Below, piece by piece: positions 12,386-57,476 of a DNA stretch of 64,000 nucleotides. The stretch covers positions 386-64,385 of the forward strand of contig JAKCDU010000010.1 of the NCBI GenBank assembly GCA_021838445.1, written 5' to 3'. The notes under the pieces are model-generated. The model ran no database searches. It saw only the letters and a list, made by a program, of their open reading frames with translations, and was not told the DNA's origin. The number at the start of each line of letters is the position of its first letter. The first letter of the stretch is position 1. Origin of the DNA: Actinomycetes bacterium. Its GTDB lineage: Bacteria; Actinomycetota; Acidimicrobiia; Acidimicrobiales; Palsa-688. The translations under genes were made by a program, and so were the position numbers.

Positions 12386-12446
12386 TCTCTTGTTCTCCTA
12401 ACCCTGGTTCCAATTTTCTCATGTACGTGGACTGTTTTGCGGCTGA

Positions 12447-35242: not shown

Positions 35243-38200
35243 TCAGTCGCCGGCCATGTTCTCCAGGGGCGCGTTCGGCGAGACGCTGACGCTGCCCCGG
35301 TAGGTGGCGTCACCGTACGCCTGCACCGTGCCGTCCCTGGCCAGGAGCCAGTAGCCCCCGCCGTCGAGGGTCGAGGTGATGGCCTCCCAGCTCTTGGTCC
35401 CGCCGGGCTCGAAGGCGCTGCCGTAGAACTTGGCGTCGCCGAAGGCGAACACGCCTCCATTCTGGGCGATGACCCAGTATCCGTTGCCCGATAGGTCTAT
35501 GGAGATACCGAGCACCGGCGACGTGGCGGCACAGACTCCGCAGTAGACGGGGAGGGAGCCGTGGAACTGGGCGTCGCCGAAGGTGAACACGCCACCGTCG
35601 GACCCGACCATGTAGTAGCCGCCACCGTCGCGGGTGGCATCGATGCCGACGATCGGGCCGACCAGCTTGATTCCGGCGAGTGACCCGTAGAACCTGGCGT
35701 CGCCGAAGGCGAACACGCCGCCGTCGCTGCTCACCAGCCAGTAGCCCCGACCACTCGGCGAGGCGGCTATGCCGACGATCTTGCTGTCGAGCGGGTAGCC
35801 GAAGGCGGATCCGTAGAATCCGGCATCTCCGTAGGAGAAGACGCCGCCATCGGCGGTGACCAGCCAGTAGCCCCGGCCCGTTGGGGTCGGTGCGATGGCC
35901 AGGACGGGAGATGCCAGAGGTGTGCCGGCGGCCGAGCCGTGGAAGGTGGCTGCTCCTTCGGTGAACACACCACCGTCAGTCCCTACCAGCCAGTAGCCGT
36001 CAGTGAGATTGTCGCTGATCACGGTATCGGCGGTGGCAGGCGCCCCGAGGGTGCCGTGGTCTACTCCCGTGAGGGCGAGCTGGAAGTACCGCAGCGTGCT
36101 GTGGGTGCTGCGGGTCAAGAAGTCGACGGTGATCGGTGCCGAAGTCGGATCGATACCGTTCGAGGGCTGGATGGTCACCTGTGATGTCTCGCTGGAGCAG
36201 CTGCTCCCACCGATGGTGCCGACCGTGAGAGAGAAGTCCACGTTGGGCTCTGCGCAGCTGGTGAACCCCGGTTGGCCTCCTGCGGTGTAAGTGACTGTCA
36301 GCGGAACGGCGACTTGCACCGGTCCGGAGTTACCGGGGGCCGGGCTCAGCTCCACCACGTAACCGTGGCTCCCCGCCTCGGCCGGGACGACTATCGCATT
36401 GTCTCCACTGCCCGACGGCTCGACCAGCGTGACGACCGGCGGAGCGACAGTCGTCGTTATGCTGCCGCTGACCTGGCCCGTCCCGGCTACCGATATCTGC
36501 GTGCCGTACGGACCGACCGGGCTGGTGAGCTGCACCGTGACCGGCAAAGCCGGGAAGTAGGCGTTGCGGATGACCGACGAGACGGCCACCGGGATGCTCG
36601 CCACCGATTGCCCGGCCGGTATGGTCACCGATCCGTTCGGGCTGCAGGTGATCACGGGGGACGGGAGGGGACAGCTCACCGTGTAGTTCACCTGGATGGG
36701 AGCCCCGGCGACCACCGGGTTGCTCGAGGCGTCGGTCAGAGTGAGAGGGAAGTTCATGGTGCCGCCGGCTGGGAGCACGACCGAGTTCGGGCTGCCCACT
36801 GTGATGTCGAGGCCCGGCGGCGGGCTGACCTCGCTCACGATGTCAGCGGTTGCGGCGGCCGCTGCGGGTAGGGCCACGTCGCCGGTGGTCGGTGAGCCGA
36901 GGCTGAGCGACACGAGCGGCCCTGGGTCGAAGTATCCGTCGGTGTTCTGAACCACCTTGACCGCCAGGGCGAACGGGGACGTACCCGACAGGGTGGTGGT
37001 CTGCAGGGTACAGGTCAGATACGACGGGCACGACAGGCTGTAGGCGCCAATGCCATAGGTGGTGGGCGACTGGGTGACGGGGTCGCTCGGAATGGTGAGC
37101 GGACTGCCCGACGCCGTGGCTGCGACGCTGAAATCGACGATGCTGCCCCCTCTGGCGATCTGCACCGGCGTCGCCGGTGGGCTGAGCAGCGCGCTCGGCG
37201 TGGTCAGCGTGATGGGGGCGGTCGAGGTCGAGATCGCCGGGGTGGCGGTGTCGGTGGCGGTGATCGTCGAGCCGGTCTGGTAGAGGGTGAACCCGCCGGG
37301 GGCGGTGCCAGGTGTGAAGACGTGGCTCCCGCCGTCAGCCGCGGTGAAGGCGAAGTCAGCCGGTAGTTGGGTGGGGGTCGAAGTGGAGGTGAAATGGACG
37401 GTTCCGGTGTAGTTCGGAGTCACGTTCCCGTAGGCGTCCACGGCGGCGAGGGTGAGGGAGAAGGCGTTCCCGGCCACCTCGGCGGGGACGGGACTCGGCG
37501 CGAAGCTGAAGCCCGCCGTGGCCGCCGCAGCGACCGTGATGGGACCTGTGTTGCCGGTGAGGCTCAGGGTGGAGTCGGTAGCCGTGACGTGCTGGAGCCC
37601 GGCGGTCTCGAGAGCGAAACCGCTGAGGTGGGCGTCGCCCTTGTCGGTGCTGGTGAAGGTGTAGGCCGCTGACGGGAACACCGCCTTGGCGTCAGACGAG
37701 CCGAAGGTGACCGTTCCGGCGTAGTTGACGTCCACTGTGCCGTCGGCGTACTCAGCCTTCAGTTCCAATGGAAAGGTCGTCCCGGCGGTGGCGGTCGCAG
37801 GCGGCGCGACGAACACCAGCTGTGTCGGGTCCGCGGTGGATACGTTCACCGTGGCGCTGCCAGCGATCGAGCTGGTTACGGTGTCGGTCGCCGTGACGGT
37901 CTGGTTGCCGGTGGTCTGCAGCTTCACGCCGGTGAATGCGTGGCTCCCATTGTCGCCAGCCACGAACTGGTAGTCAGGGGGTAGGACCACCGAAGCGGCC
38001 GTGTCCGAGGAGGTGAAGTGGATCCTACCGGCGTAGGCGGGAGTGAGGTTGGCGTAAGCGTCCATGGCCGTCACCGTCACCCCGAACGCGGTGTTCGGCG
38101 CCGTCGAGCTGGGCGCTGTGACGGCCAGTTTGGTGGTGGGTCCCGGCGACACGGTGATCGGCGTCGTCGTTCCAGTGATCGACGCAGTGGCCGTGTCGGT

Positions 38201-38557
38201 GACCGTGACGGTCTGTGGCGAAGCTGCCGTGGCGAGGGTCACGTTGAAGGTATGAACCCCGGCGTTACCAGCAGTGAAGGTGTAGTTGGTGGGCAGTGAT
38301 ACGGCTGCGTTGGTGTCAGTGGAGGAGAATTTGACGGTTCCGGCGTATCCCGTGTCGGTGGTCCCGGTGCCGTCTTCGGCGGTGACCGTGACGGTGAAGC
38401 TCTGCCCGGCCGTGACCGATGGGGGGTAACCGCTGAGGACCAGTTGGGTCGCGGCGGCCGCCGATGCCCTACTGGGCGCGGTTATCAACCCGAAGCTGAC
38501 CACCAAGAAGCCCACGATGGCGGCTACCAGCCGATAATGAGGCCGTCGTCGACGCAT
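35243..38557 (-). CDS. Secreted protein: about four Ig-like (invasin/Big-like) repeats, Calx-beta-like segments and a C-terminal six-blade GYW..DGGVF.FGDA.F.GS propeller
   Basis: Signal peptide: MRRRRPHYRLVAAIVGFLVVSFGLITAPSRASA. ~100-aa repeats (Y.G.V.F.S.D....LP..Y.F...D.G.H.F) are present. Six ~42-aa repeats (GYWLV..DGGVF.FGDA.FYGS) are encoded at about 35243-36005. Confidence 0.85.
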   Translation of the reverse strand: MRRRRPHYRLVAAIVGFLVVSFGLITAPSRASAAAATQLVLSGYPPSVTAGQSFTVTVTAEDGTGTTDTGYAGTVKFSSTDTNAAVSLPTNYTFTAGNAGVHTFNVTLATAASPQTVTVTDTATASITGTTTPITVSPGPTTKLAVTAPSSTAPNTAFGVTVTAMDAYANLTPAYAGRIHFTSSDTAASVVLPPDYQFVAGDNGSHAFTGVKLQTTGNQTVTATDTVTSSIAGSATVNVSTADPTQLVFVAPPATATAGTTFPLELKAEYADGTVDVNYAGTVTFGSSDAKAVFPSAAYTFTSTDKGDAHLSGFALETAGLQHVTATDSTLSLTGNTGPITVAAAATAGFSFAPSPVPAEVAGNAFSLTLAAVDAYGNVTPNYTGTVHFTSTSTPTQLPADFAFTAADGGSHVFTPGTAPGGFTLYQTGSTITATDTATPAISTSTAPITLTTPSALLSPPATPVQIARGGSIVDFSVAATASGSPLTIPSDPVTQSPTTYGIGAYSLSCPSYLTCTLQTTTLSGTSPFALAVKVVQNTDGYFDPGPLVSLSLGSPTTGDVALPAAAAATADIVSEVSPPPGLDITVGSPNSVVLPAGGTMNFPLTLTDASSNPVVAGAPIQVNYTVSCPLPSPVITCSPNGSVTIPAGQSVASIPVAVSSVIRNAYFPALPVTVQLTSPVGPYGTQISVAGTGQVSGSITTTVAPPVVTLVEPSGSGDNAIVVPAEAGSHGYVVELSPAPGNSGPVQVAVPLTVTYTAGGQPGFTSCAEPNVDFSLTVGTIGGSSCSSETSQVTIQPSNGIDPTSAPITVDFLTRSTHSTLRYFQLALTGVDHGTLGAPATADTVISDNLTDGYWLVGTDGGVFTEGAATFHGSAAGTPLASPVLAIAPTPTGRGYWLVTADGGVFSYGDAGFYGSAFGYPLDSKIVGIAASPSGRGYWLVSSDGGVFAFGDARFYGSLAGIKLVGPIVGIDATRDGGGYYMVGSDGGVFTFGDAQFHGSLPVYCGVCAATSPVLGISIDLSGNGYWVIAQNGGVFAFGDAKFYGSAFEPGGTKSWEAITSTLDGGGYWLLARDGTVQAYGDATYRGSVSVSPNAPLENMAGD

Positions 38558-39081: not shown

Positions 39082-42000
39082 TCAGCCGCAAGGCGGCCGG
39101 TACGGAACGCCCGGGACGTAATTGGCCCACTCGGCCCTGGTGATGGGCTGGCCAGACTCCGTGCACAGTCTGGTTATCGCCGCGGAAGGCTGATAGTCCC
39201 ACAGGTGGAGGAGGTCGTCGCCCCCACTGGAGGCGAGCACCTGGTCACCGGGTGCGAAGCTCACCACCAACGCAGTGTTCTGGGGGGCGGTCAGGGTGTC
39301 GAGGTGCACAGGGTGACGGATGTCGGCGATGTCCCACACCCACACCGAGTGGTCCGTGGACGCTGCCGCCAGGGTCCGACCGTCGGGGCTCACCGCAACG
39401 GAGAACACGTAGCCGGACGGCCCCGACAGCGGTGGCCCCAGCGGTTCGGGGCGGCTCGGATCGCTGACGTTCCAGAGTCGCACCGTGCCATCGGCGCTGC
39501 CGGCGATCAGGGTGCGGCCATCGGGAGTGAACGCCGTGGTGTAGGCATAGTTGCTGAACCCGCCCACAGTGGACAGCAGTACGGGCTTGGCCGGATCGGC
39601 GATGTCGTAGATACGGACCTTGTCGTCGGTTGCGGCATCGGCCAGCAGCTTGCCGTCGGGACTGACCGAGAAGCCGAGCACCTCTCCCTTGGTGTCTGTC
39701 CGCTCCGACAGAAGGCGGGGCGTAGCCGGGTGGCTCACGTCCCACATGAGTAGGGCCCCGCTGTCGTCGACCGCGACCAGCACTTTGCTGTTGGGGGTGA
39801 ACCCCAGCTGCTCGATGGTCGGCCTGGCGCCGTGGAGCGGGGACCCGATGGGAACCGCAGCCTCCGGCCTCGACACGTCGAAGAGCTGGACCAGGGCCCC
39901 CTTGCTGGCGGCGGCCAGCAGCTTGCCGTCGGGGCTGACGGCGCCGGCGCCCGCCACCGGGCCCAGACCGGCGGGGAGTCCGATGGAGGCCAACCGCTTG
40001 GGCTGCAGCGCGTCGGTGGTGTCCCACACGGTGACATCACTGTGGGTGCTGTCACTCACCGCGAAGAGGTATCGACCGGTGTGGGCGTAGCCGAGATAGT
40101 AGACATTGCCCGGTTCGGTGAGCGTCGACTCGAGCGGGAGCGACCACAGCCGGGTGCTGCCAGCCGAGTCGGCCGAGACGAGGGTCTTGCCGTCGGGGGT
40201 GAAGGCGACCGCGGTGACCGGGTTGCTCTGCTCGAGAGTGCCGGCCGGTTCCCATGTGCTGGTATCGAACATCTTGATCTGACCGTCGGCGGTGCCCGTC
40301 GCCAGGATAGTGCCGCTGGCGTCGAACGCGGTGCTGTCGACCTCAGCGGTGCCCTCACCCAACGGAGCGTGGGCCGGCTGGAGGCTCTGGGCTCCGGTCA
40401 GGTACCAGACGTGGGTCGTGTCGTCGGTGGCTCCGGCGGCGAGATATCTCCCGTCGGCGCTCACTGACACCGTCTGGTAGCCGGTCGTGCCCGTTCCCTC
40501 CAGGGCGACCGGTGCGGGCTGGGCGGTGTTCCACATGATCACCGTCCCGCCCGAACCAGCGGCTGCCACCGCACCGGAGGGGGTGAAGGCGACCGCCTTG
40601 AGCGCCGCTCCGCCAGGGGACCGCCAGCTCTCAGCCAGGACAGGGTGGTGGTTGGCTCCCATGGACCAGATCTGCAAGGTTCCGTCCGAAGCGCCCTCGG
40701 CGAGGCTCCGCCCGTCGGCCGAGAACGCCAACGAGTACACCGTCGATCCGGCCCGGCCGACCGTCGCCACCTTCACCGGGCGAGCGGGATCGGCGGTGTC
40801 CCACAGGGTCACCTGCCCGGCGGTACCCCCCACGGCCAGCACGGTCCCGTCCGGGGAGAGGGCCACGGCAAAGTCCTGCTCGGCGCTCGGCCCGACCGGG
40901 AAGTCCGCCAGCCGGGTCGCGCCGGGCGCCTTCAGGTCGTAGAGGGCCACCGTGTCGCCCCCTGACTGGGCGACGGCGAGGAGCCGGCCCGACGACGACA
41001 GCGAGGCGAAGAGGGGCCCGGCCGGGCCGAGGATCCGGTAGGGGACGTCACCGGCAGTGGCGTCGACGAGAGCGCTGCGGGCCTGGACGGTGGGCGCGAT
41101 CCGGTAGGCGGCCACGGCCAGCTGGGCGGCGACTGATGGGGCGCGCGTTTGGAGTTGGCGGGACTCGATGGCGACCTGACGCGACAGGGCCTCGTCCCTG
41201 GCCCGGACGGCATCCCCTCGGGACGCGACGGCCACCCCGGCGAGGACGAAGGCGGAGGCGGCCAGCACGGCGACGAGCACCAGGAGCTGCTGCATGCGCC
41301 GGCTACGACGACGCTCGAGGCGACGCTCCTGGTCGGACCAGGCCACCGACTCGGCCACGAAACCGCTTTCGAGGCGGTTCGGCTCCCGGCCCTCGCCGAT
41401 GGCTCTTTCGGCCGCCTCGAGACGTACCCCCCGCCACAGCAGGGAGACGTCCCGCCCACCGTGATCCCAGGCCTGGGCGGCCTCGTGTAGTTGCTGGTGG
41501 AGGCTGAGCCACTCGCGGTCGGACTCGATCCAGTCGGCCAGGCGCGGCCAGGCGCCGAGCAGGGCCTCGTGGCTCACCTGCACCGTCTTGGTGTCGCTGG
41601 CCAGCAGGCGGGCGGCGATGAACCGCTCCAGGACCCTCGCGGTGACGGCGTCGAGCTCGGGGTCACCGGTGTCGACCAGATCGCCCCGAGAGGCCCTTCG
41701 GCTCGTCGGCGGGCTCTCGGCATCGACGCGGACCAGGCGACCGAACACCCGCCGGGCGATGTCCTGCTCGCGCGGATCGAGCTGCTGGTAGAGCTCCTCG
41801 GCGGCCCGCAGCACGGCACCACGCAGACCTCCCACCTCCAAGTAGTCGCCGACTGTGAGCTGGTTGCGGTCGGCCCGCTGCCAGGTCGCCATGAGGGCGT
41901 AGGACATGAGCGGCAGGGCTCCGGGGCCGTGCGCGGCACCCGGCCGCTGCTGCGGGGCGAGGTCGGCGAGCACCAGCTCGACGAGGCCGTCCTCTATCAC

Positions 42001-42855
42001 CGCCCCGACCCGCCGGGCCGGGCCGACGATGGCTTCCCTGACCTCGTCGGGAGTCATAGGACCGAGGAGCACCTGGTGTTGGCGCAGAGCCGACAGGAGC
42101 AACGGCTCGCCCGCCGCCGCTTCATAGAAGTCCGACCGCAGGACCACCAAGACCGTGGTCTGTTCGATCCGGGCGCCGAGGCGATTCAAAGCCCGCAATC
42201 GATAGTCGTGGTCGGCCGAGAGCACTTCCTCGAATTGATCGACGACCAGGAGCGTGGCTGCGCCGGAATCGGACGGGATCGGCTCGCCCAGCCGGTCGTG
42301 GCCGATGACCACGGCCCTCCAGGACCTCGCTGCCGTGTCGAGGGAACCGGCGGCCACGGCGGGGAGCAGACCTGCCGAAACCAGCGATGATTTGCCCGAG
42401 CCCGACGGCCCTATGAGCACGGCCAGGCCGCCCGGTGAGACGCCGGTAGTCAGGCTCGACACGCACTGCAGCAGCTCTTCGAGAGATCGCGTCCGGCCGA
42501 AGAACCGGTCGGCGTCGACCTCCCGGTAGGGCTCGAGCCCCCGGTAGGGAGAGATCTGCTTGGGGACCCGGCCATCGGAGGACGTGCGGACCCGGACCAG
42601 CGCCTCCATCCACGACTCCACCTCGATGGCGTCGCTGACGCCGCACGCTTCGAGTACGGACCGGAACAGCGGCAGCTGACGGGGGCCGGGCAGGTGGCGC
42701 CCGGCAAAGTAGTCACCGATGGTCGCAGTCGGGGAACCGACCTGGCGCGCCACGTCTCGCACGGTGAGCTCGCTCTGCGAACGCAGCATCGTCAGCTCCC
42801 GCGCCAGATCGTCTCGGCTGTAGACCCGCGCCGGGTCAGCATGACTTCCTGCCAT
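39082..42855 (-). CDS. HTH (XRE-like) - STAND P-loop NTPase - single TM - 14x WD40 repeat protein
   Basis: HTH: LTVRDVARQVGSPTATIGDYFAGRH. Walker A: LIGPSGSGKSSLVSAGLLP. Walker B: LLVVDQFEE. TM helix: LLVLVAVLAASAFVLAGVAV. There are 14 WD-like repeat ends (GTVRLWN, HSVWVWD, DKVRIYD, GQVTLWD, GTLQIWS and others). Confidence 0.9.
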   Translation of the reverse strand: MAGSHADPARVYSRDDLARELTMLRSQSELTVRDVARQVGSPTATIGDYFAGRHLPGPRQLPLFRSVLEACGVSDAIEVESWMEALVRVRTSSDGRVPKQISPYRGLEPYREVDADRFFGRTRSLEELLQCVSSLTTGVSPGGLAVLIGPSGSGKSSLVSAGLLPAVAAGSLDTAARSWRAVVIGHDRLGEPIPSDSGAATLLVVDQFEEVLSADHDYRLRALNRLGARIEQTTVLVVLRSDFYEAAAGEPLLLSALRQHQVLLGPMTPDEVREAIVGPARRVGAVIEDGLVELVLADLAPQQRPGAAHGPGALPLMSYALMATWQRADRNQLTVGDYLEVGGLRGAVLRAAEELYQQLDPREQDIARRVFGRLVRVDAESPPTSRRASRGDLVDTGDPELDAVTARVLERFIAARLLASDTKTVQVSHEALLGAWPRLADWIESDREWLSLHQQLHEAAQAWDHGGRDVSLLWRGVRLEAAERAIGEGREPNRLESGFVAESVAWSDQERRLERRRSRRMQQLLVLVAVLAASAFVLAGVAVASRGDAVRARDEALSRQVAIESRQLQTRAPSVAAQLAVAAYRIAPTVQARSALVDATAGDVPYRILGPAGPLFASLSSSGRLLAVAQSGGDTVALYDLKAPGATRLADFPVGPSAEQDFAVALSPDGTVLAVGGTAGQVTLWDTADPARPVKVATVGRAGSTVYSLAFSADGRSLAEGASDGTLQIWSMGANHHPVLAESWRSPGGAALKAVAFTPSGAVAAAGSGGTVIMWNTAQPAPVALEGTGTTGYQTVSVSADGRYLAAGATDDTTHVWYLTGAQSLQPAHAPLGEGTAEVDSTAFDASGTILATGTADGQIKMFDTSTWEPAGTLEQSNPVTAVAFTPDGKTLVSADSAGSTRLWSLPLESTLTEPGNVYYLGYAHTGRYLFAVSDSTHSDVTVWDTTDALQPKRLASIGLPAGLGPVAGAGAVSPDGKLLAAASKGALVQLFDVSRPEAAVPIGSPLHGARPTIEQLGFTPNSKVLVAVDDSGALLMWDVSHPATPRLLSERTDTKGEVLGFSVSPDGKLLADAATDDKVRIYDIADPAKPVLLSTVGGFSNYAYTTAFTPDGRTLIAGSADGTVRLWNVSDPSRPEPLGPPLSGPSGYVFSVAVSPDGRTLAAASTDHSVWVWDIADIRHPVHLDTLTAPQNTALVVSFAPGDQVLASSGGDDLLHLWDYQPSAAITRLCTESGQPITRAEWANYVPGVPYRPPCG

Positions 42856-44677: not shown

Positions 44678-45463
44678 CTACCCCGGCTTCTGCCACACCG
44701 AGACGTGGGAGCGGCTGTCGCCGGTGAAGGGCGCTCCGGTGAAGTCGGCCCAACGGTGCAGCAAGGTCAGGCCGGCCAGCCGGGCCATGAGGTCGAGCTC
44801 GGAGGGCCAGACGTAGCGGTAGGGGGTGGTGGTGCGGCGCAGCGATCCGCCGTCGGGCTCGATGTGGTGGGAAACGGCGTTCTGGGACACCAGATCTACA
44901 TAGTGGTCATAGCCGACATGGTCGGCCCCGTGGGCGAAGACCAACGTGTCCTGCCCGGGAGGCAGGCGGCGCAGGTCGGGCACCCCGACCTCCACCACGA
45001 ACGCCCCGCCGGCCTCGAGGTGCTCGGCGGCGTTGGCGAAGCAGGCGACCTGCTCGTCCTGGGTGGTGAGGTTCCCGATGGTGTTGTAGACGAGGTAGAC
45101 CAGCCGGAACGACCCGGCGACCCGGGTGGAGGCCATGTCGCCGATGGTCACGTCCATGAGGTCCCCGCCGGGCTTGGCCCGCAGCCGCGCGACCATGGCC
45201 GCCGACAGCTCCACGCCCGACACCGGCACCCCTCGGGCGGCTAGCGGCAGCGCCACCCGACCGGTGCCGACGGCCAACTCCAGGGCCGCCCCGTCGCCGG
45301 CCAGGGAGACCAGCAGGTCCACGGTCGGCCCGAGCACATCATCGGAGAACATGCCCTGCGCCGAGTGGTCGTAGGCCGCGGCTACTTCCTCGCCGAAATG
45401 GTCGGGTGGCACTCCCCTACCCTCGCATCCCGCCGGGCCGGCACCGGGCGCCCGGCGGCTCAC
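44678..45463 (-). CDS. Class I SAM-dependent methyltransferase
   Basis: SAM-binding motif LELAVGTGRVALPLAARG. The GTG at 45463 overlaps the upstream TGA (GTGA, 45460-45463). Confidence 0.8.
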   Translation of the reverse strand: MSRRAPGAGPAGCEGRGVPPDHFGEEVAAAYDHSAQGMFSDDVLGPTVDLLVSLAGDGAALELAVGTGRVALPLAARGVPVSGVELSAAMVARLRAKPGGDLMDVTIGDMASTRVAGSFRLVYLVYNTIGNLTTQDEQVACFANAAEHLEAGGAFVVEVGVPDLRRLPPGQDTLVFAHGADHVGYDHYVDLVSQNAVSHHIEPDGGSLRRTTTPYRYVWPSELDLMARLAGLTLLHRWADFTGAPFTGDSRSHVSVWQKPG

Positions 45464-49895: not shown

Positions 49896-51524
49896 TCAGG
49901 GTACCGACGGGCTGATGGATTCGATCACCTCGCCTGGCCGGGCGGTCACGGCTGCCGCGCCGAAGAAGCGAACGTGATCGGCGACATCGACGATCTGGTC
50001 CAGGAAGCCATCGTGGGCGCCCCGGCGCGGGTCCTCGACGGTTCCCTCCACGAACAGCACCGCGAAGCGAGCCCGACGGCCGTCGGGCTTCTTGCGCAGT
50101 ACCCGCCCCATCCTCTGCACCATCTGGCGCCGGGACCGGCTCGCCCCGACTATGACCGCCAGGTCAGCCTCCGGTACGTCGATGCCCTCGTCCAGAATGC
50201 GGGGCGCAGCCAGCATCCGGGTCCGACCCGCGGCGAAGGCGTCGAGGGCCCGGCGTCGCTCGGGCGCCCCGAGCCCCGAGTGGATGACTCCGGCCGGCAG
50301 GCCCCCCCGACTGCACACGGCGGCGGCCCGCTCGGCGGCGGCGATGCTCTGGGTGAACACGATGGTCCGCTCCGCGATCACCATCGCCGGGAACAGGCCG
50401 GCCAGCCCGGCCTGCTTGGCCGGGGTGTCGGCCAGCAGCTGACGCCGTTCCCTCATGGCGTGCAGGTAGGCCCGGGCGACGCTGCTGCCCTCGCCGTCGG
50501 TGTCGGCCAGAACGGTCACCGCTTTGAGGAACGCCTCGAGCGGCTCTCCGGGCAGCCCGAACCCGCCGACCAGGCGGCCCTGCAGCCGGCCCAGCACATC
50601 GCTCAGCTCGTCGTAGCGAGCCTGCTCGTCGGCCTCGAAGACCACCCCGACCAGGGTCACGGCGAAGTGCGCCGTCACCCCTTCGTCGATGGCCCGGCGG
50701 TAGCCCATCTCGAAGCACGTTCCCCCGAAGTAGGGATCCAGCCAGGACAGGTTCCCGTCGTCGTCGCGGGCGTAGGTGGCGCTCAGCCCCAGTCGGCGGG
50801 TGAAGCGGTGGTCGAGGGCCAGCCGGTTGACGGCGGAGCCGTAGCGGTGGCACTCGTCGGCGACGAGCAGGCCCGAGGGGCGAATGGGGCGCACGTCGAT
50901 ACTGCGGGCGCTGTTGACGACCGCCACCAACACGTCGCTTCCGGCCAGGGTGTCGGTCCGGCCCGCGCCGAGCCGGCCGATGCGGCGCCCGGCCGGTACG
51001 ACGCGGCTCAGGGCGGCGGTCCACTGGTGCGCCAACTCGACGGTGGGCACCAGGACCAGGGCCTGACCCCTCCGCTGCAGCTGCTCGGCGGTGGCGGCCA
51101 CGCCGAGCATCGTCTTGCCCGTACCGGTCACTGCCTCCACCACCCCGCGCCGGCCCCGTCTGCGCCAGGCCTCCAGCGCGTCGCGCTGCCAGCGGTACAA
51201 GCCGGCTGGCGCAGCGGCGATCGGCCCCGACGCGAGGGGGGCCGATCCGGCTGGCTCCGGGCCCATCGGGGACCGACCGGAAGGTCCCGTGCCGGCTCCA
51301 GCTCGGACCGATCGAGTTCCTACGGCCGGCCGGGTGCCGGGGGTCGCGGTCGCGGGTACGACCAGGCTCCAGCGGGCCGGCGTGGCCCGGTCGCGCCGGA
51401 ACCGTCCGTGAGTGGACAGCAGCGTGTAGGAGACCCGGCGCTCGGACTCACCCAACAGCTCGGCCACTTCGGCGGCCGTCGCATCGCCTCCGGCCAGGAC
51501 GCCGGCGATGTCGTCGGCCAGCAC
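49896..51524 (-). CDS. SF2 helicase (ResIII/XPB-like DEAD/DEAH family) with an N-terminal winged-helix-like domain; gene 5 of the five-gene operon
   Basis: Motifs: I AVTGTGKT, II DECH, III SAT, VI QMVQRMGRVLR. The N-terminal ~120 aa include AEVAELLGESERRVSYTLL. The GTG at 51524 is 3 nt after the upstream stop. Confidence 0.9.
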   Translation of the reverse strand: MLADDIAGVLAGGDATAAEVAELLGESERRVSYTLLSTHGRFRRDRATPARWSLVVPATATPGTRPAVGTRSVRAGAGTGPSGRSPMGPEPAGSAPLASGPIAAAPAGLYRWQRDALEAWRRRGRRGVVEAVTGTGKTMLGVAATAEQLQRRGQALVLVPTVELAHQWTAALSRVVPAGRRIGRLGAGRTDTLAGSDVLVAVVNSARSIDVRPIRPSGLLVADECHRYGSAVNRLALDHRFTRRLGLSATYARDDDGNLSWLDPYFGGTCFEMGYRRAIDEGVTAHFAVTLVGVVFEADEQARYDELSDVLGRLQGRLVGGFGLPGEPLEAFLKAVTVLADTDGEGSSVARAYLHAMRERRQLLADTPAKQAGLAGLFPAMVIAERTIVFTQSIAAAERAAAVCSRGGLPAGVIHSGLGAPERRRALDAFAAGRTRMLAAPRILDEGIDVPEADLAVIVGASRSRRQMVQRMGRVLRKKPDGRRARFAVLFVEGTVEDPRRGAHDGFLDQIVDVADHVRFFGAAAVTARPGEVIESISPSVP

Positions 51525-51527
51525 CGG

Positions 51528-52775
51528 TCAGAGCTCCTCGCTCGGCCCTTCGAGCTCGACCTCGGTGCTCAGATCGAGGTCCACTCCCGCCACCAGGATC
51601 TGCGGCTGGTAGTCGGGGTCCAAGCGGCGCAGGTCCCACTCGTTGATCCACGCCCGCACGTACTGACGCATCCGGTTCGAGGGGAGCCGCTCGATGCCGG
51701 CCACCTCAGGTGGCTGCCAACCGTAGGCCTGGCCGTGGATCTCCTTCAGCTGGCGGTAGGTACGGTCCAGCTCGTCCTGCCCGGGGGGCTGCAGCCGCAG
51801 CTGCTCCCGCTCGATGATGCGCATCCCGATCTCGGCCTGCCCGGCCAGCAGCTCGTCCTCTACGCCGCCTTTGGCCCTGAGTCGCTTCGGTATCAGCTCC
51901 ACATCGTTCTTTCCGACCAGCACCTGGGTCTCGAAGTCGTCGACGGTGGTCCCGACGGCGACGATCGGCACCCCCGGATCGTCGCGATCTCCTCTAACCC
52001 ACCGGGCGAGCTCGGCATAGGACCTGGCCCTCTGCAGAGCGCTGTAGCGGCCGATCAGCTCCACCTCGTCGAGCAGCACGACCCAGCCGGCGTGACCGGC
52101 CGCTTGGATGAGGCGGCCCACGAACCGGAACCTCTGACGTGACAGGTCCCGCTCCTTCACGGAGCCCAAGCGGTACCCGGCCGCCGCGCCGGCCTCCTTG
52201 AGCCGCCGACGCAGATCGGCCACCGGGAGCGGATCCCCAGCCCAGAATCGGGATATCCGCTCGGCGAACTCCTCGTCTCCACGGGCGTGCTCGAAGAGGA
52301 ACAGGCTGGCCGCGAAGCGGCTGTCGACCGGCGTTCGTTCCTGGTGCACCCAGCGGTACAGCTCGGCGTATTCGGGCGAGTCGAGCTGCAGCCCGGCGGT
52401 GATCTCGTCGATGGCCGAGCCGGGACGACCGGGCACCCTGGCCGCCTCGATGGCCGCCCGGTAGACCTTGACCGGGTCGTGGAGGGGCGTCTCCTTGGAG
52501 ATCACCACCTTCGAGACCACGAAGCCCCGGGACAAGGCGACATGCGTCAGGTGCTCGAGGACGTGGCTCTTGCCCGTCCCGAACCCGCCTCCTATCAGCA
52601 TGCCGCCGGGCGCCGATCCGTCGGGCAGGGCCTGCACCGCGTCGAGCAGCTCGCTGAAGCGGTCCTCCACTCCCTGCTGCATGGATCCGAGCACGCTCAC
52701 GGCGTCCCGGTTGGGGACACCCGCCCGCAGCGCCTCGATGGCCCGGCGGCGGTCGACGGTGATCGGGTCGCTCAC
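51528..52775 (-). CDS. P-loop ATPase of the DUF2791 / BrxC-BrxD type; gene 4 of the operon
   Basis: I chose GTG 52775 (VSDPITVDRRRAIEALRAGVPN), which overlaps the upstream TGA (GTGA, 52772-52775). The longer ORF-track N-terminus is Arg/Pro-rich and lies inside the upstream gene. Walker A: GGGFGTGKSHVL. Walker B: WVVLLDEVE. Confidence 0.8.
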   Translation of the reverse strand: MSDPITVDRRRAIEALRAGVPNRDAVSVLGSMQQGVEDRFSELLDAVQALPDGSAPGGMLIGGGFGTGKSHVLEHLTHVALSRGFVVSKVVISKETPLHDPVKVYRAAIEAARVPGRPGSAIDEITAGLQLDSPEYAELYRWVHQERTPVDSRFAASLFLFEHARGDEEFAERISRFWAGDPLPVADLRRRLKEAGAAAGYRLGSVKERDLSRQRFRFVGRLIQAAGHAGWVVLLDEVELIGRYSALQRARSYAELARWVRGDRDDPGVPIVAVGTTVDDFETQVLVGKNDVELIPKRLRAKGGVEDELLAGQAEIGMRIIEREQLRLQPPGQDELDRTYRQLKEIHGQAYGWQPPEVAGIERLPSNRMRQYVRAWINEWDLRRLDPDYQPQILVAGVDLDLSTEVELEGPSEEL

Positions 52776-53725
52776 GCTGCCCCCAGCCGGACCAGCGAGG
52801 ACAGAGGGTTCTCCCGTCGGACGTCGCGCACCTCGTCGAAGATGCGCAGCTTGAGCGCCTGATAGGCGTCGACGCCGCGGGACGGGTCGGACAGGAACGC
52901 CGGCGAGGCCACCACGACCACGATGCAGTTGGCCATCTCGTCGGTGTTGTCGATCAGCTGCCGCAACACCTCGTAGGCGTCTAGTAGGGCAGCTTTGGTG
53001 TAGTAGTGACCGTGCCGCTCCTCGGGGGCCGGACGCCGGGAGAAACCGAGCCGGCGGATGTCGAGGACGAATGCCATCCCGGTGCGGTCGTTGACGGTCA
53101 GCCAGTGGGCCAGGGAGAACAGCAGGTGCCGGGCGTTGTGGCGCCCGATGCGCCGAAAGATGAGAGCCGACTTGAGAGCGGACATCTGGCGCAGGTCCCC
53201 CCTCAGCCACTCCATGACGGCGTCGTATTCGGCATCGGCGACCTGGCCGCTGCGCAGCTGCGCCTGGCACAGGCGCAGCATGGCCGTTCGGAACTCCTGG
53301 ACCATGGCGTAGTCCTGTTGCACCTGGTGCTGGAGCTGACGGTCCAGGTCACGTTTCAGCTCACGGGGGTCGACCTGGTGGTGCGACGCCAGCCGCTCGA
53401 GGGTGACCGTACCGTCGGGCGGGGGCGGGTAGCCGGCGGCCGTCACGGCCTTGCTCACGGCGATCGCAGCCAGCTCCTCCCAGTCGATCTGTCGAGCGAC
53501 CTGGAAGAACACCTGGTCGAGCAGCTGCACACGGGTGGATGCTGCGTCGACGTGGACGGTCGTGTAGCCAGCCGAGTCGGCGGTCGCCTGGAAGCGGTCC
53601 AGGAACGAGGTGGCGCTCGTCTCGTCGGTTGGCACCACGAACTTGACCGCCGCCCCACCGCCGTCGACGAAACCGCGCAGGTACTCGTGGTCGAGGAGCT
53701 CCACGAAGCGGTCGGCGGCAATCAC
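52772..53725 (-). CDS. Hypothetical 317-aa protein, ATPase-like but without an intact P-loop; gene 3 of the operon
   Basis: The GTG at 53725 overlaps the upstream TGA (GTGA). Third-position GC is high. GGGAAVKF sits where a Walker A would be expected. CIVVVVASP is a strand-like segment. I recognise no other motif. Confidence 0.7.
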   Translation of the reverse strand: MIAADRFVELLDHEYLRGFVDGGGAAVKFVVPTDETSATSFLDRFQATADSAGYTTVHVDAASTRVQLLDQVFFQVARQIDWEELAAIAVSKAVTAAGYPPPPDGTVTLERLASHHQVDPRELKRDLDRQLQHQVQQDYAMVQEFRTAMLRLCQAQLRSGQVADAEYDAVMEWLRGDLRQMSALKSALIFRRIGRHNARHLLFSLAHWLTVNDRTGMAFVLDIRRLGFSRRPAPEERHGHYYTKAALLDAYEVLRQLIDNTDEMANCIVVVVASPAFLSDPSRGVDAYQALKLRIFDEVRDVRRENPLSSLVRLGAA

Positions 53726-54510
53726 TTCTCGGCACCGGTGAAGGCCACGCCGGCGTAGACCTTGGTCTGACCGGCCCGGGTCACGGTGGTCAGCACCCCG
53801 GTACCGCGGGTCATCGCACTGGCCGGCAGGCTCATGGTCCGGGCGTCGCGGGTGGTGACCACACCGGTCTGGTCGAGCAGGTACATGTCGCGGGCGAGCT
53901 CCTGGCGGGTGTAGTCACGCCCCGCCCCGGGCAGCAGCGTCAGGACCCGGTGGACATCGACGAGCTTGGCCGGGCTCCCCGGCCTCAGCCCTTTGGCTGC
54001 GACCACCAGGTCGTAGGCCGACGCCAGGCTCTCGATGAACGGCTCCGGCTTGAACTTGGGCGGGCGCTGCTGGAGCGCGGCCAGTTGGTTGACCACCACC
54101 GACGGACGGATCCGGCGGTCCTTGACCTTGTCGATGCTGATCGTCGCGTCCGAACCGGACAGGGAGACGATGGCCGGGTAGCAGAGGACCCGCTCGTCGG
54201 ACTCGAACGCCTGCACCCCCGCCTCGGCGGCGGTGGCCAACAGTTCCTTGGTGTAGCCCCCCGAGCCGAACCAGGCCCCGACGTCGAAACCCCAGTCGCC
54301 TCTGAGCTGCTCGGCCCTCTCCGACGCCTGGGCGGCCAGTGTCGCCCCGGCCTCCAGAGCCGCCTCGAGGTCGCGGACCTGGCCCGAGGCGGCCGCCGAC
54401 TTGGCCTTCTTGGCCGCCTTGAGCACCGCCGTGAGAGCCTTGATCAGCCCATCGGCGTCGCTCTCGACGTCCTGCAGGGCCCGCTCGAGGCTGCTGGCCG
54501 GGTTGTTCAT
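53722..54510 (-). CDS. Hypothetical 262-aa protein with an N-terminal coiled coil; gene 2 of the operon
   Basis: The ATG at 54510 overlaps the upstream TGA (ATGA, 54507-54510). The N-terminus (LERALQDVESDADGLIKALTAVLKAAKKAKSAAASGQVRDLEAALEAG) is helical. The remainder is unrecognised. Confidence 0.7.
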   Translation of the reverse strand: MNNPASSLERALQDVESDADGLIKALTAVLKAAKKAKSAAASGQVRDLEAALEAGATLAAQASERAEQLRGDWGFDVGAWFGSGGYTKELLATAAEAGVQAFESDERVLCYPAIVSLSGSDATISIDKVKDRRIRPSVVVNQLAALQQRPPKFKPEPFIESLASAYDLVVAAKGLRPGSPAKLVDVHRVLTLLPGAGRDYTRQELARDMYLLDQTGVVTTRDARTMSLPASAMTRGTGVLTTVTRAGQTKVYAGVAFTGAEK

Positions 54511-55961
54511 GACATACCTCCGCTTACCAGTTCAGGTGGAAAGGGCACCGTCCCGGCCGACTCCCTGTCGGCCCGGCCGCTCTGGGACCCGGCTGCTTGC
54601 ACCTTCACAGCCAGATCCCCGTCGGTCGAAAAGCCCAGCAACAGCGTGTCGCCGAGACGCGCTCCGGCGGCCAGGGCGACGGCGCGAACCGAACCTCTGG
54701 TCACCGCTTGTGATTCGTAGGCCAACGACACCGGTCCCCACCGGCTCGAGAAGGTCCGCCTCTGCGGTGGTCGCATCCCGAGCCCCTCGGCCAGCGCCGC
54801 CGTCACCTCGGATGCAGCGCCGCGCAGCGCGTCCCGGTCGATCTCCACGGCCAGCCACTGCCGGTCGGCGGCAAGGGCCCGGTTCGGAGGAGTTCGGGCC
54901 GGCTCCGGGCGGGCCGGTGACCGTCGGCTCACGCTCGCGCTGGGTCCCGGCGCCGCCGGGGGCTGGCTCGGGCCCCATTCGGCCAGCCCGAACAGCCCGT
55001 CGCCGTCGGCCCTGAAGCGCCGGTGGCGCAGGGCCGCGGCAACTGAGATCGCCCCCTCCGGACGTCCGCCGCGGTTCAGATCGCCGGCTAGCAGAGCGGG
55101 TGAGCAGGGCTCGGCGTGGGCGTCGAGCAGTCGCTCCAGAGCATCTCGTAGCGCCCCTCGGGCGACCGACACGGCCAAGTCGTGCACCACGACGGCCCCG
55201 CTGGCGGCAAGCCACTCCTCGAGCTGGCCGGATCCGATCCCGGTGTCGGACAGCTCGGCCCGCACCTCGTCGAGGGGCCGTACCCCGCCATCGGTGTCCA
55301 AGCAGACCGCGGTGGCGCGCCTCGCCGCGGCGGGCTCTACGGCCAGCCAACCAGGACGCTCGGGCACCGCCCGGTACGGTCCGGCCAGCCACAGGAGCAA
55401 TCCGACCGCCATCTCATCGGACGCTCCCAGGGCCGCCAGGAGGCGCGCCGCTCGGTCCTCGGCGGTGACCGCCCCGAGACGGCCCCGAACGGCACCGGCC
55501 GCCCAGCGCAGCCCTCCGGGGCGGGCCGCCACCCGGTCTCGCACCCTCCGCCCGGCCGCCTGGGCCATCTGGCCAATCCTTTGGGGTGACACTCCTTCGG
55601 CCTTGGCCATTTGGGTCTGCGACGCCCGGGCCGGGCACAGCGACCACGCCGCGAACACCCGCTGGTGACGCTCGTCACCGGCGGCCTCGACGGCCTCTCG
55701 GGCCGCCCCCAGCAGGTCCAGGGCCCACGGGGCCCCCTGACCGAGCAGCCGGTCGGCGGCCGCGGCCACCTTCGGATCGGCAGCCAGCCGGCGCTCGAGG
55801 AGGGCCTCGGTCACGACCTGGTCGATGCCGCCCCGCTCGTGAGCCAGCACCACCTCCAGATCTCTGGAAGCTCGCGTCCGAGTGGCGGCCGGGCCGCCCA
55901 GCCCTCCTCTGGCCATGGCCCGACGATAGCCACTGGCCGGCGCCACATAGGTGGACGACAC
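54507..55961 (-). CDS. Hypothetical 484-aa protein with a sigma-70 region-4-like HTH; gene 1 of the operon
   Basis: The HTH TQMAKAEGVSPQRIGQMAQAAGRRVRDRV is preceded by RHQRVFAAW. The GTG at 55961 has no clear SD, and an alternative ATG lies at 55916. The 28-bp repeat array begins 12 nt upstream. Confidence 0.65.
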   Translation of the reverse strand: MSSTYVAPASGYRRAMARGGLGGPAATRTRASRDLEVVLAHERGGIDQVVTEALLERRLAADPKVAAAADRLLGQGAPWALDLLGAAREAVEAAGDERHQRVFAAWSLCPARASQTQMAKAEGVSPQRIGQMAQAAGRRVRDRVAARPGGLRWAAGAVRGRLGAVTAEDRAARLLAALGASDEMAVGLLLWLAGPYRAVPERPGWLAVEPAAARRATAVCLDTDGGVRPLDEVRAELSDTGIGSGQLEEWLAASGAVVVHDLAVSVARGALRDALERLLDAHAEPCSPALLAGDLNRGGRPEGAISVAAALRHRRFRADGDGLFGLAEWGPSQPPAAPGPSASVSRRSPARPEPARTPPNRALAADRQWLAVEIDRDALRGAASEVTAALAEGLGMRPPQRRTFSSRWGPVSLAYESQAVTRGSVRAVALAAGARLGDTLLLGFSTDGDLAVKVQAAGSQSGRADRESAGTVPFPPELVSGGMS

Positions 55962-55973
55962 CGTGGAGCGAAT

Positions 55974-56120
55974 GTGGCCGTCGCGTTGCCGGGGCCGCTG
56001 GGCCGGACGTGACCGTCACCTTGCCTGGGGCCGGACGTGACCGTCACCTTGCCTGGGGCCGGAGGTGACCGTCACCTTTCCTGGGGCCGGAGATGACCGT
56101 CTCGTTTCCGGTGTCCGACA
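55974..56120. repeat. Tandem 28-bp direct repeats (3 near-perfect and 2 degenerate copies), each containing the palindrome GTGACCGTCAC; likely an operator or promoter array
   Basis: GTGACCGTCACCTTGCCTGGGGCCGGAC occurs at 56009-56036, 56037-56064 and 56065-92. Degenerate copies lie at 55974-56008 and 56093-56120. There are no spacers. The array lies in the divergent intergenic region between 55961 (-) and 56208 (+). Confidence 0.85.
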
Positions 56121-56207: not shown

Positions 56208-56684
56208 ATGCCCGACACCAACTTCCTCACCGATCGCATCGAGGTGACCCGGCCCATCCCAGCGCCCGCTCCGGCCATCTTCGAGCTGCTGCGCAGCCCG
56301 GCCGGGCACGTGGCCATCGACGCCTCGGGGATGCTGCAGGACTTCACCGGAGAGCCGGCCGACCAGGTGGGCGACACCTTCGTCATCCACATGGACCGCG
56401 AGTCACTCAACGACGTCCCCCTGGGCCGCTACGACGTCACCGTGCACATCATCACCTTCGAGCCCGACCGGGAGATCGCCTGGAACCTCGGACCCGACAT
56501 CCCCTACCCCCACTTCTACGGCTACCGGCTCGAACCCGGAGACGACGGCGTCACCAACGTGACCTCTTACTACGACTGGTCCAAGGTGACCGGCGACATC
56601 AAGGAACGCTTCCCGATCGTTCCCGAGTCGGCCCTGCGGGCCACCCTCGGGATACTGGAGCGCACCGTCCGCCGGGGCTTGTAG
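56208..56684 (+). CDS. SRPBCC-superfamily (START/polyketide-cyclase-like) protein
   Basis: 158 aa. The N-terminus (IEVTRPIPAPAPAIFELLRSPAGH) is typical of SRPBCC proteins. ATG 56208 has GAGGAG 7 nt upstream. Confidence 0.7.
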   Translation: MPDTNFLTDRIEVTRPIPAPAPAIFELLRSPAGHVAIDASGMLQDFTGEPADQVGDTFVIHMDRESLNDVPLGRYDVTVHIITFEPDREIAWNLGPDIPYPHFYGYRLEPGDDGVTNVTSYYDWSKVTGDIKERFPIVPESALRATLGILERTVRRGL

Positions 56685-56763: not shown

Positions 56764-57369
56764 TCAGCCGGCCGGGGCCGGCGGCTCCTTGGCCGCGCTC
56801 CTGACCAACAGGCCGGCCAGGAAGACGTCGCTGATCCGCTCGGCGATGGTCGATGCCGATATGGCCCCCTCGACGTGCCACCAGCGGGTCAGCCAGTTGA
56901 GGGCGCCGATCAGGGCCATGGCCGATACGAGCACGTCGGTGTCGGGTGCGAACAGGCCTTCGGCCACTCCCGAGGCGATGACTTCCTCGATGAGCGAGAC
57001 GTAGGCGTGGTCCTTGGCCGCCCATTCCTCGCCCAGGCCCCGGCCGGCCACCTCGTGCAGGTACACGGCGGCGAAGTCGTAGGTCCGTTCGAGCACCGAC
57101 ACGTGGATCCTGGTCACCCGGCGGACCTTCTCGCTGGCTGGCAGGTCCATGGCCGCCAACCCCCGGAGGGTGCTCAGGAGCTCCTCGGCGGGGGGGCCGA
57201 CCACCGCTTCGAGGAGCTCCTCCTTGGACGAGACGTAGTTGTAGAGGCTCCCCTTGGACATCCCGAGGTTGCCGGCGATCTCGTCGAGGGAGGCGGCGGC
57301 GAACCCCCTTGCCCGGAACACCTTGGCCGCGGCAGCCACGACATCGTCCCACCGACTTGGACGTGGCAC
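56764..57369 (-). CDS. TetR-family transcriptional regulator
   Basis: HTH: VVAAAAKVFRARGFAAASLDEIAGNLGMSKGSLYNYVSSKEELL. I prefer GTG 57369, which has GGGAGGA 7 nt upstream. The ORF-track GTG at 57444 would add 25 residues. Confidence 0.8.
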   Translation of the reverse strand: MPRPSRWDDVVAAAAKVFRARGFAAASLDEIAGNLGMSKGSLYNYVSSKEELLEAVVGPPAEELLSTLRGLAAMDLPASEKVRRVTRIHVSVLERTYDFAAVYLHEVAGRGLGEEWAAKDHAYVSLIEEVIASGVAEGLFAPDTDVLVSAMALIGALNWLTRWWHVEGAISASTIAERISDVFLAGLLVRSAAKEPPAPAG

Positions 57370-57414
57370 CTTCGCATCCTCCCAGCGGTCGCCGCCGTAG
57401 GCGACCTTCCGTTG

Positions 57415-57476
57415 ACTATAGGGCCCGATTCGGCGGCCAGCCACGCCGAACGGCCACGGGGTAGCCGACCTATAGT
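57415..57476. promoter_or_regulatory. Inverted repeat ACTATAGG ... CCTATAGT in the TetR/thiolase divergent region (candidate operator pair)
   Basis: actatagg at 57415-57422 and cctatagt at 57469-57476. ccgaac/gttcgg arms lie nearby. If the TetR start is 57369, the whole element is intergenic. Confidence 0.3.

Follow-up and report, generated by a model that had tools for sequence, protein, structure and literature searches.

A cassette of five coupled genes

We examined a 64,000-nucleotide (nt) stretch of contig JAKCDU010000010.1, from the assembly of an Actinomycetes bacterium (GCA_021838445.1), and refer to this whole stretch as the window. An earlier reading, made from the sequence alone, had picked out five tightly coupled minus-strand genes of the window and proposed them as a candidate module for the surveillance of nucleic acids or for defence against phages. 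The five open reading frames (ORFs), at 49896-55961, make up one cassette and are denoted here by g1 to g5 (Table 1). Both the ORFs and the sequences of their junctions were confirmed, and all of the motifs quoted in the sequence-only reading were found in the translations. An ATGA overlap joins g1 to g2 (reading GTCATGAAC), GTGA overlaps join g2 to g3 (GAAGTGATT) and g3 to g4 (AGCGTGAGC), and g4 and g5 are separated by a 3-nt spacer, TGAccgGTG (CTCTGACCGGTGCTG). Since start and stop codons overlap, the five genes form one operon. The GC content at third codon positions (GC3) is about 0.9 in g2, g3 and g5, the operon ORFs kept by the frame-composition filter, which is the same as in the neighbouring genes.

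Two of the gene starts required attention. The start of g4 at 52775 sits within a longer ORF of 580 amino acids (aa); we retained the shorter form because the orthologues are all 415 aa long and the alignment of the g4 family (A8) runs from residue 1. For g1 there are three candidates, a GTG at 55961, an ATG at 55916, and a start at about 55853, which is implied by public gene calls of 448 aa.

Table 1. Genes of the cassette and features identified within them (positions in the window)
Feature	Position	Strand	Description or basis
g1	54507-55961	-	DNA-binding protein (most likely), 448-484 aa depending on start
g2	53722-54510	-	262-aa signature protein of the family
g3	52772-53725	-	317-aa putative BrxC/BrxD-family paralogue, degenerate P-loop
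g4	51528-52775	-	415-aa predicted BrxD-like ORC/Cdc6-type AAA+ ATPase
g5	49896-51524	-	542-aa predicted XPB/Rad25-type SF2 helicase
g1, sigma-70 region 4 / KorA-like helix-turn-helix TQMAKAEGVSPQRIGQMAQAAGRRVR	55554-55661	-	sequence, weak Pfam KorA match, Foldseek
g1, C-terminal beta domain, B3 / BfiI-C / EcoRII-N pseudobarrel-like	54597-54881	-	Foldseek on the AlphaFold2 model
g3, degenerate P-loop GGGAAVKF, aa 22-29	53639-53662	-	alignment A7
g4, Walker A GGGFGTGKSHV, aa 61-71	52563-52595	-	alignment A8
g4, Walker B VVLLDEVE, aa 232-239	52059-52082	-	alignment A8
g5, P/A/G-rich low-complexity linker, aa 55-105	51212-51362	-	joins the N-terminal domain to the helicase core

An ATPase and a probable paralogue with a degenerate P-loop

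The assignment of g4 to the BrxC/BrxD type of ATPase, already made from the sequence, was borne out by a near-complete match to PF10923 (BrxC/BrxD; 78.1 bits, E 8.2e-22, profile positions 5-364). g3 also matched this family (45.9 bits, E 4.9e-12), at profile positions 140-331 only, and both scores exceed the gathering threshold of 22.2 bits. Among the PADLOC models, g4 matched BrxD with 1.2e-18, SngB with 4e-8 (31 bits) and BrxC with an E-value of 0.017, whereas its score against the NCBIfam model BREX_BrxD (NF033438) was 67.1 bits versus a cut-off of 350, with the best stretch covering residues 7-125 only. g4 is the most conserved gene of the cassette, with 65-82% identity to its orthologues. 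In 19 diverse sequences (A8), its N-terminal RRAxEALRxGVPN segment, the Walker A motif GxFGxGKSH and the Walker B motif LLDEVE are invariant, including D236 and E237 of the latter. By these residues, g4 is predicted to be an intact BrxC/BrxD-family AAA+ ATPase with Walker A and B motifs of the active type.

The sequence-only reading was right in that g3 carries GGGAAVKF in place of a Walker A motif, and no GK[ST] was found; that g3 is itself a paralogue within the BrxD family had been missed. G23, G24 and K28 of this P-loop are invariant in the g3 alignment (A7), and a GGxxxK pattern is kept. g3 fails the test for an active P-loop, and its sole conserved acidic residue of the Walker B kind is D222. 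BLASTP places GGGAAVKF opposite the Walker A motif of g4, although the direct match between the two proteins is marginal (E 0.056). Comparison of g3 with the g4 family by hhalign gave an E-value of 3.3e-4 over 198 columns, but a probability of only 38%. Our reading is that g3 is a probable paralogue of g4 whose nucleotide site is dead or non-canonical.

An XPB-like helicase

The call of g5 as a superfamily 2 (SF2) helicase held in the Pfam scan, where ResIII, Helicase_C and the ERCC3 C-terminal domain (ERCC3_RAD25_C) were detected. Its motifs are AVTGTGKT, DECH, SAT followed by RDD at the RED-like position, and QMVQRMGRVLR. The closest solved relatives are archaeal XPB helicases (6p4f, 5tnu and 2fwr; E 1e-26 to 1e-27), aligned to residues 101-497 of g5. 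Against the NCBIfam XPB equivalog (NF045503), g5 scored 93.9 bits (8e-27) versus a cut-off of 610, so it is better described as XPB-like than as an XPB orthologue. The best PADLOC matches were PbeA models (1.8e-57), with only the helicase part covered (profile 253-477 and 381-639), and TIGR04095 (dnd_restrict_1) matched with 1e-39. BrxHI models of PADLOC were matched by Helicase_C only (6e-13, query 359-487), and SngC with 8e-4.

No nuclease domain, including PLD, was found in g5 by the Pfam scan. The N-terminal domain, putatively wHTH-like according to the sequence-only reading, is about 55 aa long, and its sequence is conserved in a full-length orthologue from Dormibacterota (L002). The linker that follows it varies in length among orthologues, whose total length is 482-542 aa. 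As g5 aligns to XPB only from XPB residue 70-86 onward, the damage-recognition domain of XPB appears to be replaced in g5 by the 55-aa domain and the linker.

A probable DNA-binding protein and the signature protein

No significant family was found for g1 in Pfam, PADLOC, NCBIfam or PHROGs. Its AlphaFold2 model, built with 68 homologues, reached a predicted local distance difference test (pLDDT) score of 87.6 and showed an all-helical N-terminal half that includes a helix-turn-helix (HTH), several winged-helix-like units in tandem, a disordered linker and a C-terminal beta domain. The HTH of the sigma-70 region 4 type, which had been noticed from the sequence, was present in the model, with weak E-values: the Pfam match to KorA had an E-value of 0.027, and Foldseek matched sigma region 4, KorA and ArdK with a probability of 0.9-1.0 and E-values that were again weak. 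The C-terminal barrel had not been noticed. It was matched by Foldseek to plant B3 domains (4i1k, 1yel, 5yzy and 6fas) with a probability of 0.98-1.00, a target-normalised template modelling (TM) score of 0.54-0.57 and weak E-values (0.05-0.27 for these four structures, 0.02-0.3 for B3 domains overall), and more weakly to BfiI (3zi5 and 2c1l; probability 0.60 and 0.41, TM-score 0.39 and 0.19, E 1.7 and 2.1). This domain has a pLDDT of about 94-96 in the model and is the best-conserved stretch of the g1 alignment (A3). Judged from the model, g1 is most likely a multi-module DNA-binding protein. It is also the fastest-evolving gene of the cassette (27-55% identity to orthologues versus 65-82% for g4), which fits the expectation for a specificity component.

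For g2, no family was found in any of the same four databases. The AlphaFold2 model of g2 (pLDDT 95.2, 82 diverse homologues) consists of an N-terminal antiparallel helical hairpin (aa 8-72), an alpha/beta domain, C-terminal helices and then a beta-sheet; read by eye, the model's C-terminal part is winged-helix-like. Foldseek searches of g2 against the Protein Data Bank (PDB) and BFVD gave no significant match, the best one being MutH (E 0.88, probability 0.11), so that the confident model suggests a novel fold. The structural check proposed with the sequence-only reading thus returned putative DNA-binding modules for g1 and no known fold for g2.

G43, P112, R135 and Y200 are invariant in g2. 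Clustering of the family at 50% identity gave 614 clusters. Almost every full-length member is about 260 aa long, and the more than 585 clusters found at 90% identity are all labelled "hypothetical". The possibility that g2 is a cryptic PD-(D/E)xK nuclease was considered and rejected. The hints towards MutH and a viral Mrr domain (E 2.4) are insignificant and the catalytic residues are not conserved: D105 and D127, the candidate acidic residues, show a conservation of only about 75%, and a conserved lysine is lacking. For these reasons we do not call g2 a nuclease.

Distribution and mobility of the cassette

We scanned one genome per GTDB species (185,579 species representatives) for related loci; the collection scans were run with narrower g2 alignments (A2 and A10). 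At least 347 loci matched, so the distribution is patchy, and the best 80 of the 347 were inspected. These are mostly metagenome-assembled genomes (MAGs) from Acidimicrobiia, other Actinomycetota (Nakamurella, Cellulomonas and Mycobacteriales) and Dormibacterota. The related loci (L001-L083) represent 82 distinct places, as L005 is the same place as L001. Among those of the 82 related loci with enough length for all five genes, the order g1-g2-g3-g4-g5 had a single exception, L045, in which no g1 match was found. Because the order recurs in related loci, the five-gene arrangement is not a matter of chance. Identity to the window cassette was 51-76% for g2, 46-77% for g3 and 42-66% for g5, in addition to the ranges given above for g1 and g4.

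The flanks of these loci are unrelated to one another: 196 of the 213 clusters of flank proteins are singletons, and none of the neighbours of the window cassette recurs at other loci. Thus, the cassette is horizontally mobile and moves as a unit. The survey proposed with the sequence-only reading has in this way returned both the co-occurrence of the five genes and their scattered distribution. The same clustering shows no sixth conserved gene for the clade of the window, and this candidate was rejected. Among the 150 nearest neighbour proteins, raw counts were 7 for PIN toxins, 4 for major facilitator superfamily (MFS) proteins, 3 each for AAA_21/AriA, resolvase and DUF2786, and 2 each for GajB-like UvrD, AbiLi and DRT. 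On the complete-scale contig of L001, transposases and VapBC lie beside the cassette.

No g2 homologue was found in 72,556 PLSDB plasmids, 50,697 INPHARED phage genomes or the contigs of IMG/VR, and a plasmid or phage origin was rejected on these grounds. In one MAG ("uncultured proteobacterium Umea1p3_bin-980") the cassette is present twice, in copies that have diverged and lie on separate contigs (L070 and L078), and in another case (L057) the cassette lies on a contig binned as Bifidobacterium breve; these observations may reflect several copies per genome or binning errors.

A conserved three-gene core with exchangeable partners

Distant relatives of g2, about 25-40% identical, were traced by contig look-ups, a profile search and a scan of metagenomes. 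The genes g2, g3 and g4 occur in that order in all 52 distant loci that reach g4 and have a g4 match, with hosts that include Acidobacteriota such as Bryobacteraceae, and in none of these 52 loci was g1 or an XPB-type g5 found. The five-gene set had been put forward as a unit, and its order is indeed kept within the clade of the window (L045 apart); what is conserved more widely is the triad g2-g3-g4 alone.

In place of g5, a SNF2 helicase of about 700-780 aa lies downstream of the triad in 11 of the 31 distant loci with at least 1 kb of downstream sequence. Among the copies scanned with Pfam, those of L088, L127, L133 and L145, all four of full length, have the helicase fused to an Mrr nuclease (Mrr_cat 1e-22 to 1e-24). 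These SNF2-Mrr proteins match the ZorD model of PADLOC with 1e-71 to 1e-75, and the match is limited to the C-terminal portion of the profile (from about position 410-440). A separate protein of about 180 aa, of no known family, precedes the SNF2 helicase in 10 of the 11 loci; the exception is L095, where it is joined to the N-terminus of the helicase, in which Pfam gave no match to Mrr. The combination of triad, 180-aa protein and ZorD-like SNF2 helicase was seen in L088, L095, L127, L128, L132, L133, L140-L142, L144, L145 (8001-13718, for example) and L155, with the 180-aa protein not detected in the short L142.

Other partners lie upstream. On one contig the triad is preceded by an Mrr_cat-DEAD helicase. 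In 11 loci a protein of 335-370 aa, which matches PDC-M38A of PADLOC with 3e-16, lies directly upstream of the triad, and in 5 of the 11 a protein homologous to the 108-aa HNH endonuclease of L120 is placed between the two. The HNH-bearing loci are L097, L114, L120 (2601-7106, for example), L121 and L124; the 335-370-aa protein was also observed in L107-L109, L119 and L122. Homology of g1 to the roughly 340-aa protein that precedes the triad in other lineages was considered and rejected, as hhalign gave a probability of 0.2%. Two loci (L093 and L094) have the triad with no obvious partner and with adjoining FtsK or RecO/HelY-like genes.

Comparison with named systems

The sequence-only reading had matched this gene set to no named system, and the searches proposed with it led to the same result. 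Scans of the five proteins with PADLOC, Pfam, NCBIfam and PHROGs gave no system-level match, none of g1 to g4 belongs to a PHROGs family, and the signature proteins of BREX, Shango and Pbe are missing or fall under the curated cut-offs; assignment to a named system was therefore rejected, and by sequence the cassette appears to match none. A literature search, which covered few subscription papers, found no prior description of the gene set.

One resemblance in organisation is to type 2 bacteriophage exclusion (BREX), also known as phage growth limitation (Pgl). BrxD has been classed as an ATPase of the AAA+ class of the origin recognition complex (ORC)/Cdc6 type and proposed as a loader or activator of its partner helicase BrxHI, to which it is tightly linked in type 2 BREX (PMC12839542). 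The cassette likewise has a stand-alone PF10923 ATPase beside an SF2 helicase and occurs in actinobacterial hosts. However, the score of g4 is far under the BrxD equivalog cut-off, and BrxHI is a Ski2/Lhr-type helicase with a winged HTH, a HAS barrel and an Lhr C-terminal domain (PMC12839542), whereas g5 is XPB-type and, with only 542 aa, has no room for these extra domains. The cassette also adds g1, g2 and the inactive paralogue g3, which have no BREX counterpart. The Pfam and PADLOC scans of window ORFs gave no match to the N6-adenine methyltransferase PglX (for PADLOC, among the matches listed). The phosphatase PglZ, PglY/BrxC and PglW were also absent from the Pfam and PADLOC matches listed, save for matches of kinases of the window to the kinase part of PglW. 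An arrangement of an inactive STAND protein (iSTAND) with BrxC has been reported as universal in BREX (PMC12839542), and the inactive P-loop protein g3 beside the active ORC-like g4 is reminiscent of this BrxB/BrxC arrangement; the analogy is one of organisation only, since g3 shares PF10923 with g4 and appears not to belong to the BrxB family.

Shango also combines an accessory protein, an ATPase of the BrxD/SngB class and an SF2 helicase, and SngB was matched by g3 (3e-3) as well as by g4. The match to g4 covers only about 110 N-terminal residues, however, and that of g5 to SngC is weak, which points to family-level relations of g4 to SngB and of g5 to SngC rather than orthology. SngA has a TerB domain, whereas no TerB match was found in the five proteins and the predicted fold of g2 is different; the pair of active and inactive ATPases and g1 belong to the cassette and not to Shango.

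The helicase core of g5 is most similar to the PbeA clade of defence helicases from Dnd-Pbe. PbeA joins an SF2 helicase to an N-terminal HKD/PLD nuclease (PMC10853773, PMC6459918), and this nuclease is missing from g5. The CxC ABC ATPase PbeC and the DndE-like PbeD had no match in the five proteins or in the window neighbours scanned, and the cassette has no dnd modification genes. With archaeal XPB-Bax1, g5 shares the XPB family and motifs I, II, III, the RED-like RDD and VI, but there is no Bax1-like partner, as the models of g1 and g2 match no Bax1 chains in the PDB. Finally, the ZorD-like SNF2-Mrr protein that follows the triad in distant relatives recalls type I Zorya, in which ZorD is an ATP-dependent, auto-inhibited nuclease effector that degrades phage DNA once activated (PMC11946911). 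This likeness is confined to the sister lineages, whereas the helicase of the window lacks a nuclease, and ZorA, ZorB and ZorC are nowhere present.

Proposed function and alternative explanations

We consider it somewhat probable, at about 55%, that the cassette belongs to a horizontally mobile family, as yet without a name, of NTPase-helicase modules directed against phages or plasmids. The repeated pairing of the triad with restriction-type nucleases is the strongest argument for a role of the family in conflict with invading DNA. The proposal of a surveillance or anti-phage module has thus gained support as a candidate, through the mobility of the cassette and the coupling of the triad elsewhere to Mrr and HNH nucleases. 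The protective phenotype, the formation of a complex, the loader role and the DNA target are all what we infer, and such details are much less sure than the defence reading as a whole.

The following mechanism can be envisaged. g1, which is specific to the lineage, would read DNA through its HTH, its winged-helix array and its B3-like barrel, providing target recognition. g3 and g4 would form a heteromeric ATP switch, with g2 as an adaptor that contributes its long helical hairpin. By analogy with what has been proposed for BrxD and BrxHI, the assembly of g2, g3 and g4 would act as an ATP-driven switch or loader that brings the XPB-type translocase g5 to the recognised DNA or activates it there. 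The motor loaded in the sister lineages would carry an Mrr or HNH nuclease and presumably degrade the DNA. As there is no recognisable nuclease in the window lineage, its output may be non-nucleolytic, such as the blocking of replication or transcription or the stripping of proteins, or it may depend on an unlinked or cryptic nuclease. In its most specific form, the proposal would be that of an immune module in which a BrxD-family pair, one active and one dead, together with an adaptor of novel fold loads an XPB-type translocase onto foreign DNA picked by g1. Protection would be nuclease-free, for example by eviction of the replication or transcription machinery, and in other phyla the triad would be a universal "loader cartridge" that serves helicase-nucleases, ZorD-like ones among them. 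In this full form the proposal is tentative, and possible rather than probable.

Several observations weigh against a defence function. No obvious defence island surrounds the cassette here: as the sequence-only reading had noted, no tRNA gene and no obvious shift in GC content were found, no integrase was seen, and the genes around the cassette include those for a penicillin-binding protein (PBP), GalE and a TetR regulator. Defence-gene neighbours at other loci are occasional and not systematic, the counts given above being raw and without a background rate. No copy was found on known plasmids or phages or on IMG/VR contigs, and the conservation of g4 across phyla, at 65-82% identity, is unusual for immune genes. 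The window lineage appears to have no recognisable nuclease or other effector, and the structural matches of the g1 model are high in probability and weak in E-value (0.02-0.07). Since the triad stands alone in L093 and L094, the coupling to a helicase may also be looser than proposed.

Part of this evidence would fit a horizontally acquired accessory module for genome maintenance, in which the ORC-like pair and the DNA-binding protein target an XPB-type helicase to serve the host chromosome in repair, replication restart or the handling of R-loops and transcription bubbles. The solved structures closest to g5 are XPB repair helicases, a relation also seen in the NCBIfam XPB match (8e-27). The operon has no nuclease, methylase or toxin, its sequences are highly conserved, its neighbours in the window are housekeeping-like, and in L093 and L094 the triad adjoins FtsK or RecO/HelY-like genes. 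Yet g5 is far under the XPB equivalog cut-off (94 versus 610 bits), and a maintenance function is at odds with a patchy distribution (347 of 185,579 species representatives), with non-syntenic flanks and with interchangeable partners, among them ZorD-like effectors and Mrr and HNH nucleases of the restriction type. On balance we regard this explanation as unlikely.

The combination of an ORC/Cdc6-type AAA+ ATPase, a helicase and a DNA-binding protein, moving as a unit and with transposases, resolvases or toxin-antitoxin genes near some loci, could also be the replication or maintenance module of an integrated mobile element that was not recognised as such, in which g1 would bind the origin, g3 and g4 would serve as initiator or loader, and the helicase would be g5. 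This is distinctly improbable, given that relatives have the helicase fused to an Mrr nuclease, that genes for integrases, conjugation or capsids are not consistent companions, that the searched plasmids, phage genomes and IMG/VR contigs contain no homologue, and that g1 to g4 have no PHROGs family. XPB and SNF2 helicases are moreover not known as replicative helicases.

An orphaned or decayed remnant of type 2 BREX, in which a BrxD-BrxHI pair survived the loss of PglW, PglX, PglY and PglZ, is suggested by the match of g4 to BrxD models, by the tight linkage of that pair in type 2 BREX (PMC12839542) and by the probably actinobacterial host, but it is largely refuted and very improbable, as g4 reaches 67 bits versus the BREX_BrxD cut-off of 350, g5 is XPB-type and not of the Lhr/Ski2 type of BrxHI (PMC12839542), g1, g2 and g3 lack BREX counterparts, and the five-gene set is intact in dozens of genomes with no Pgl gene alongside.

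Should the cassette protect against phages or plasmids, as the defence reading holds, it would define a new system family, with 614 clusters of g2 and at least 347 species representatives. The family is centred on Actinomycetota, Dormibacterota and Acidobacteriota of soil, peat and groundwater, taxa with poor coverage in current defence catalogues. In that case the cassette would also offer a minimal, methylase-free setting to learn the role of BrxD/SngB-class ATPases, in which the loading or licensing of SF2 helicases is directly testable. The natural series of partners (nuclease-less XPB-type, ZorD-like SNF2-Mrr, Mrr-DEAD and HNH) is a built-in comparison that separates the steps of sensing, loading and effector action. 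The cassette may best be described as a candidate ATPase-plus-helicase defence module of a new variety, with a three-gene core that had no name before; many such candidate systems exist.

Surroundings of the cassette in the window

On one side, the cassette is adjoined by genes for a small membrane protein, GalE and the PBP, and on the other by a gene for a 158-aa protein (56208-56684) and the TetR gene (56764-57444). The 158-aa gene and g1 are divergent, and the intergenic region between them contains a 28-nt tandem repeat (56000-56101, 3.6 copies, 95% matches), in which the palindrome GTGACCGTCAC occurs three times, at 56009, 56037 and 56065. GTGACNGTCAC has 5 matches in the window versus 0.09 expected. 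The repeats had been taken as native to the operon in the sequence-only reading. They turned out to be local to the window: the repeat was not found upstream of 65 other cassettes, for which reason a role as the operator of the cassette was rejected and it is probably a local operator array that is not part of the system.

The sequence-only reading had also stated that no methyltransferase gene is present anywhere in the window. This was not strictly correct, as a class I S-adenosylmethionine (SAM) methyltransferase of 261 aa is encoded at 44678-45463 (minus strand; Methyltransf_25/11), with no match to a DNA-methylase family and no link to the operon. Two long ORFs, at 46-5025 (plus strand, 1659 aa) and 35243-38557 (minus strand, 1104 aa), have a coding-like GC3 and no Pfam match at E <= 1e-5. 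The GC content is 0.63-0.64 at 10001-16000 versus about 0.70-0.73 elsewhere, and frame-composition gene calling was poor there.

A run of genes of the signalling or secretion type occupies 12447-35146 on the minus strand. It includes an FHA and FtsK/SpoIIIE protein (EccC-like, 1516 aa), transglutaminase-like, DUF58 and MoxR AAA_3 proteins, a 2110-aa Big_9/fn3 protein, two Ser/Thr kinases and an FHA protein. Outside the operon, Ser/Thr kinases account for all of the PADLOC matches listed (PD-T4-6, mad6 and the kinase part of PglW; 25 of the 40 matched families). At 39082-42855 (minus strand), 7 kb from the operon, a 1257-aa protein combines an nSTAND1 NTPase domain (E 1e-97) with WD40 beta-propellers, an architecture typical of conflict or signalling NTPases.

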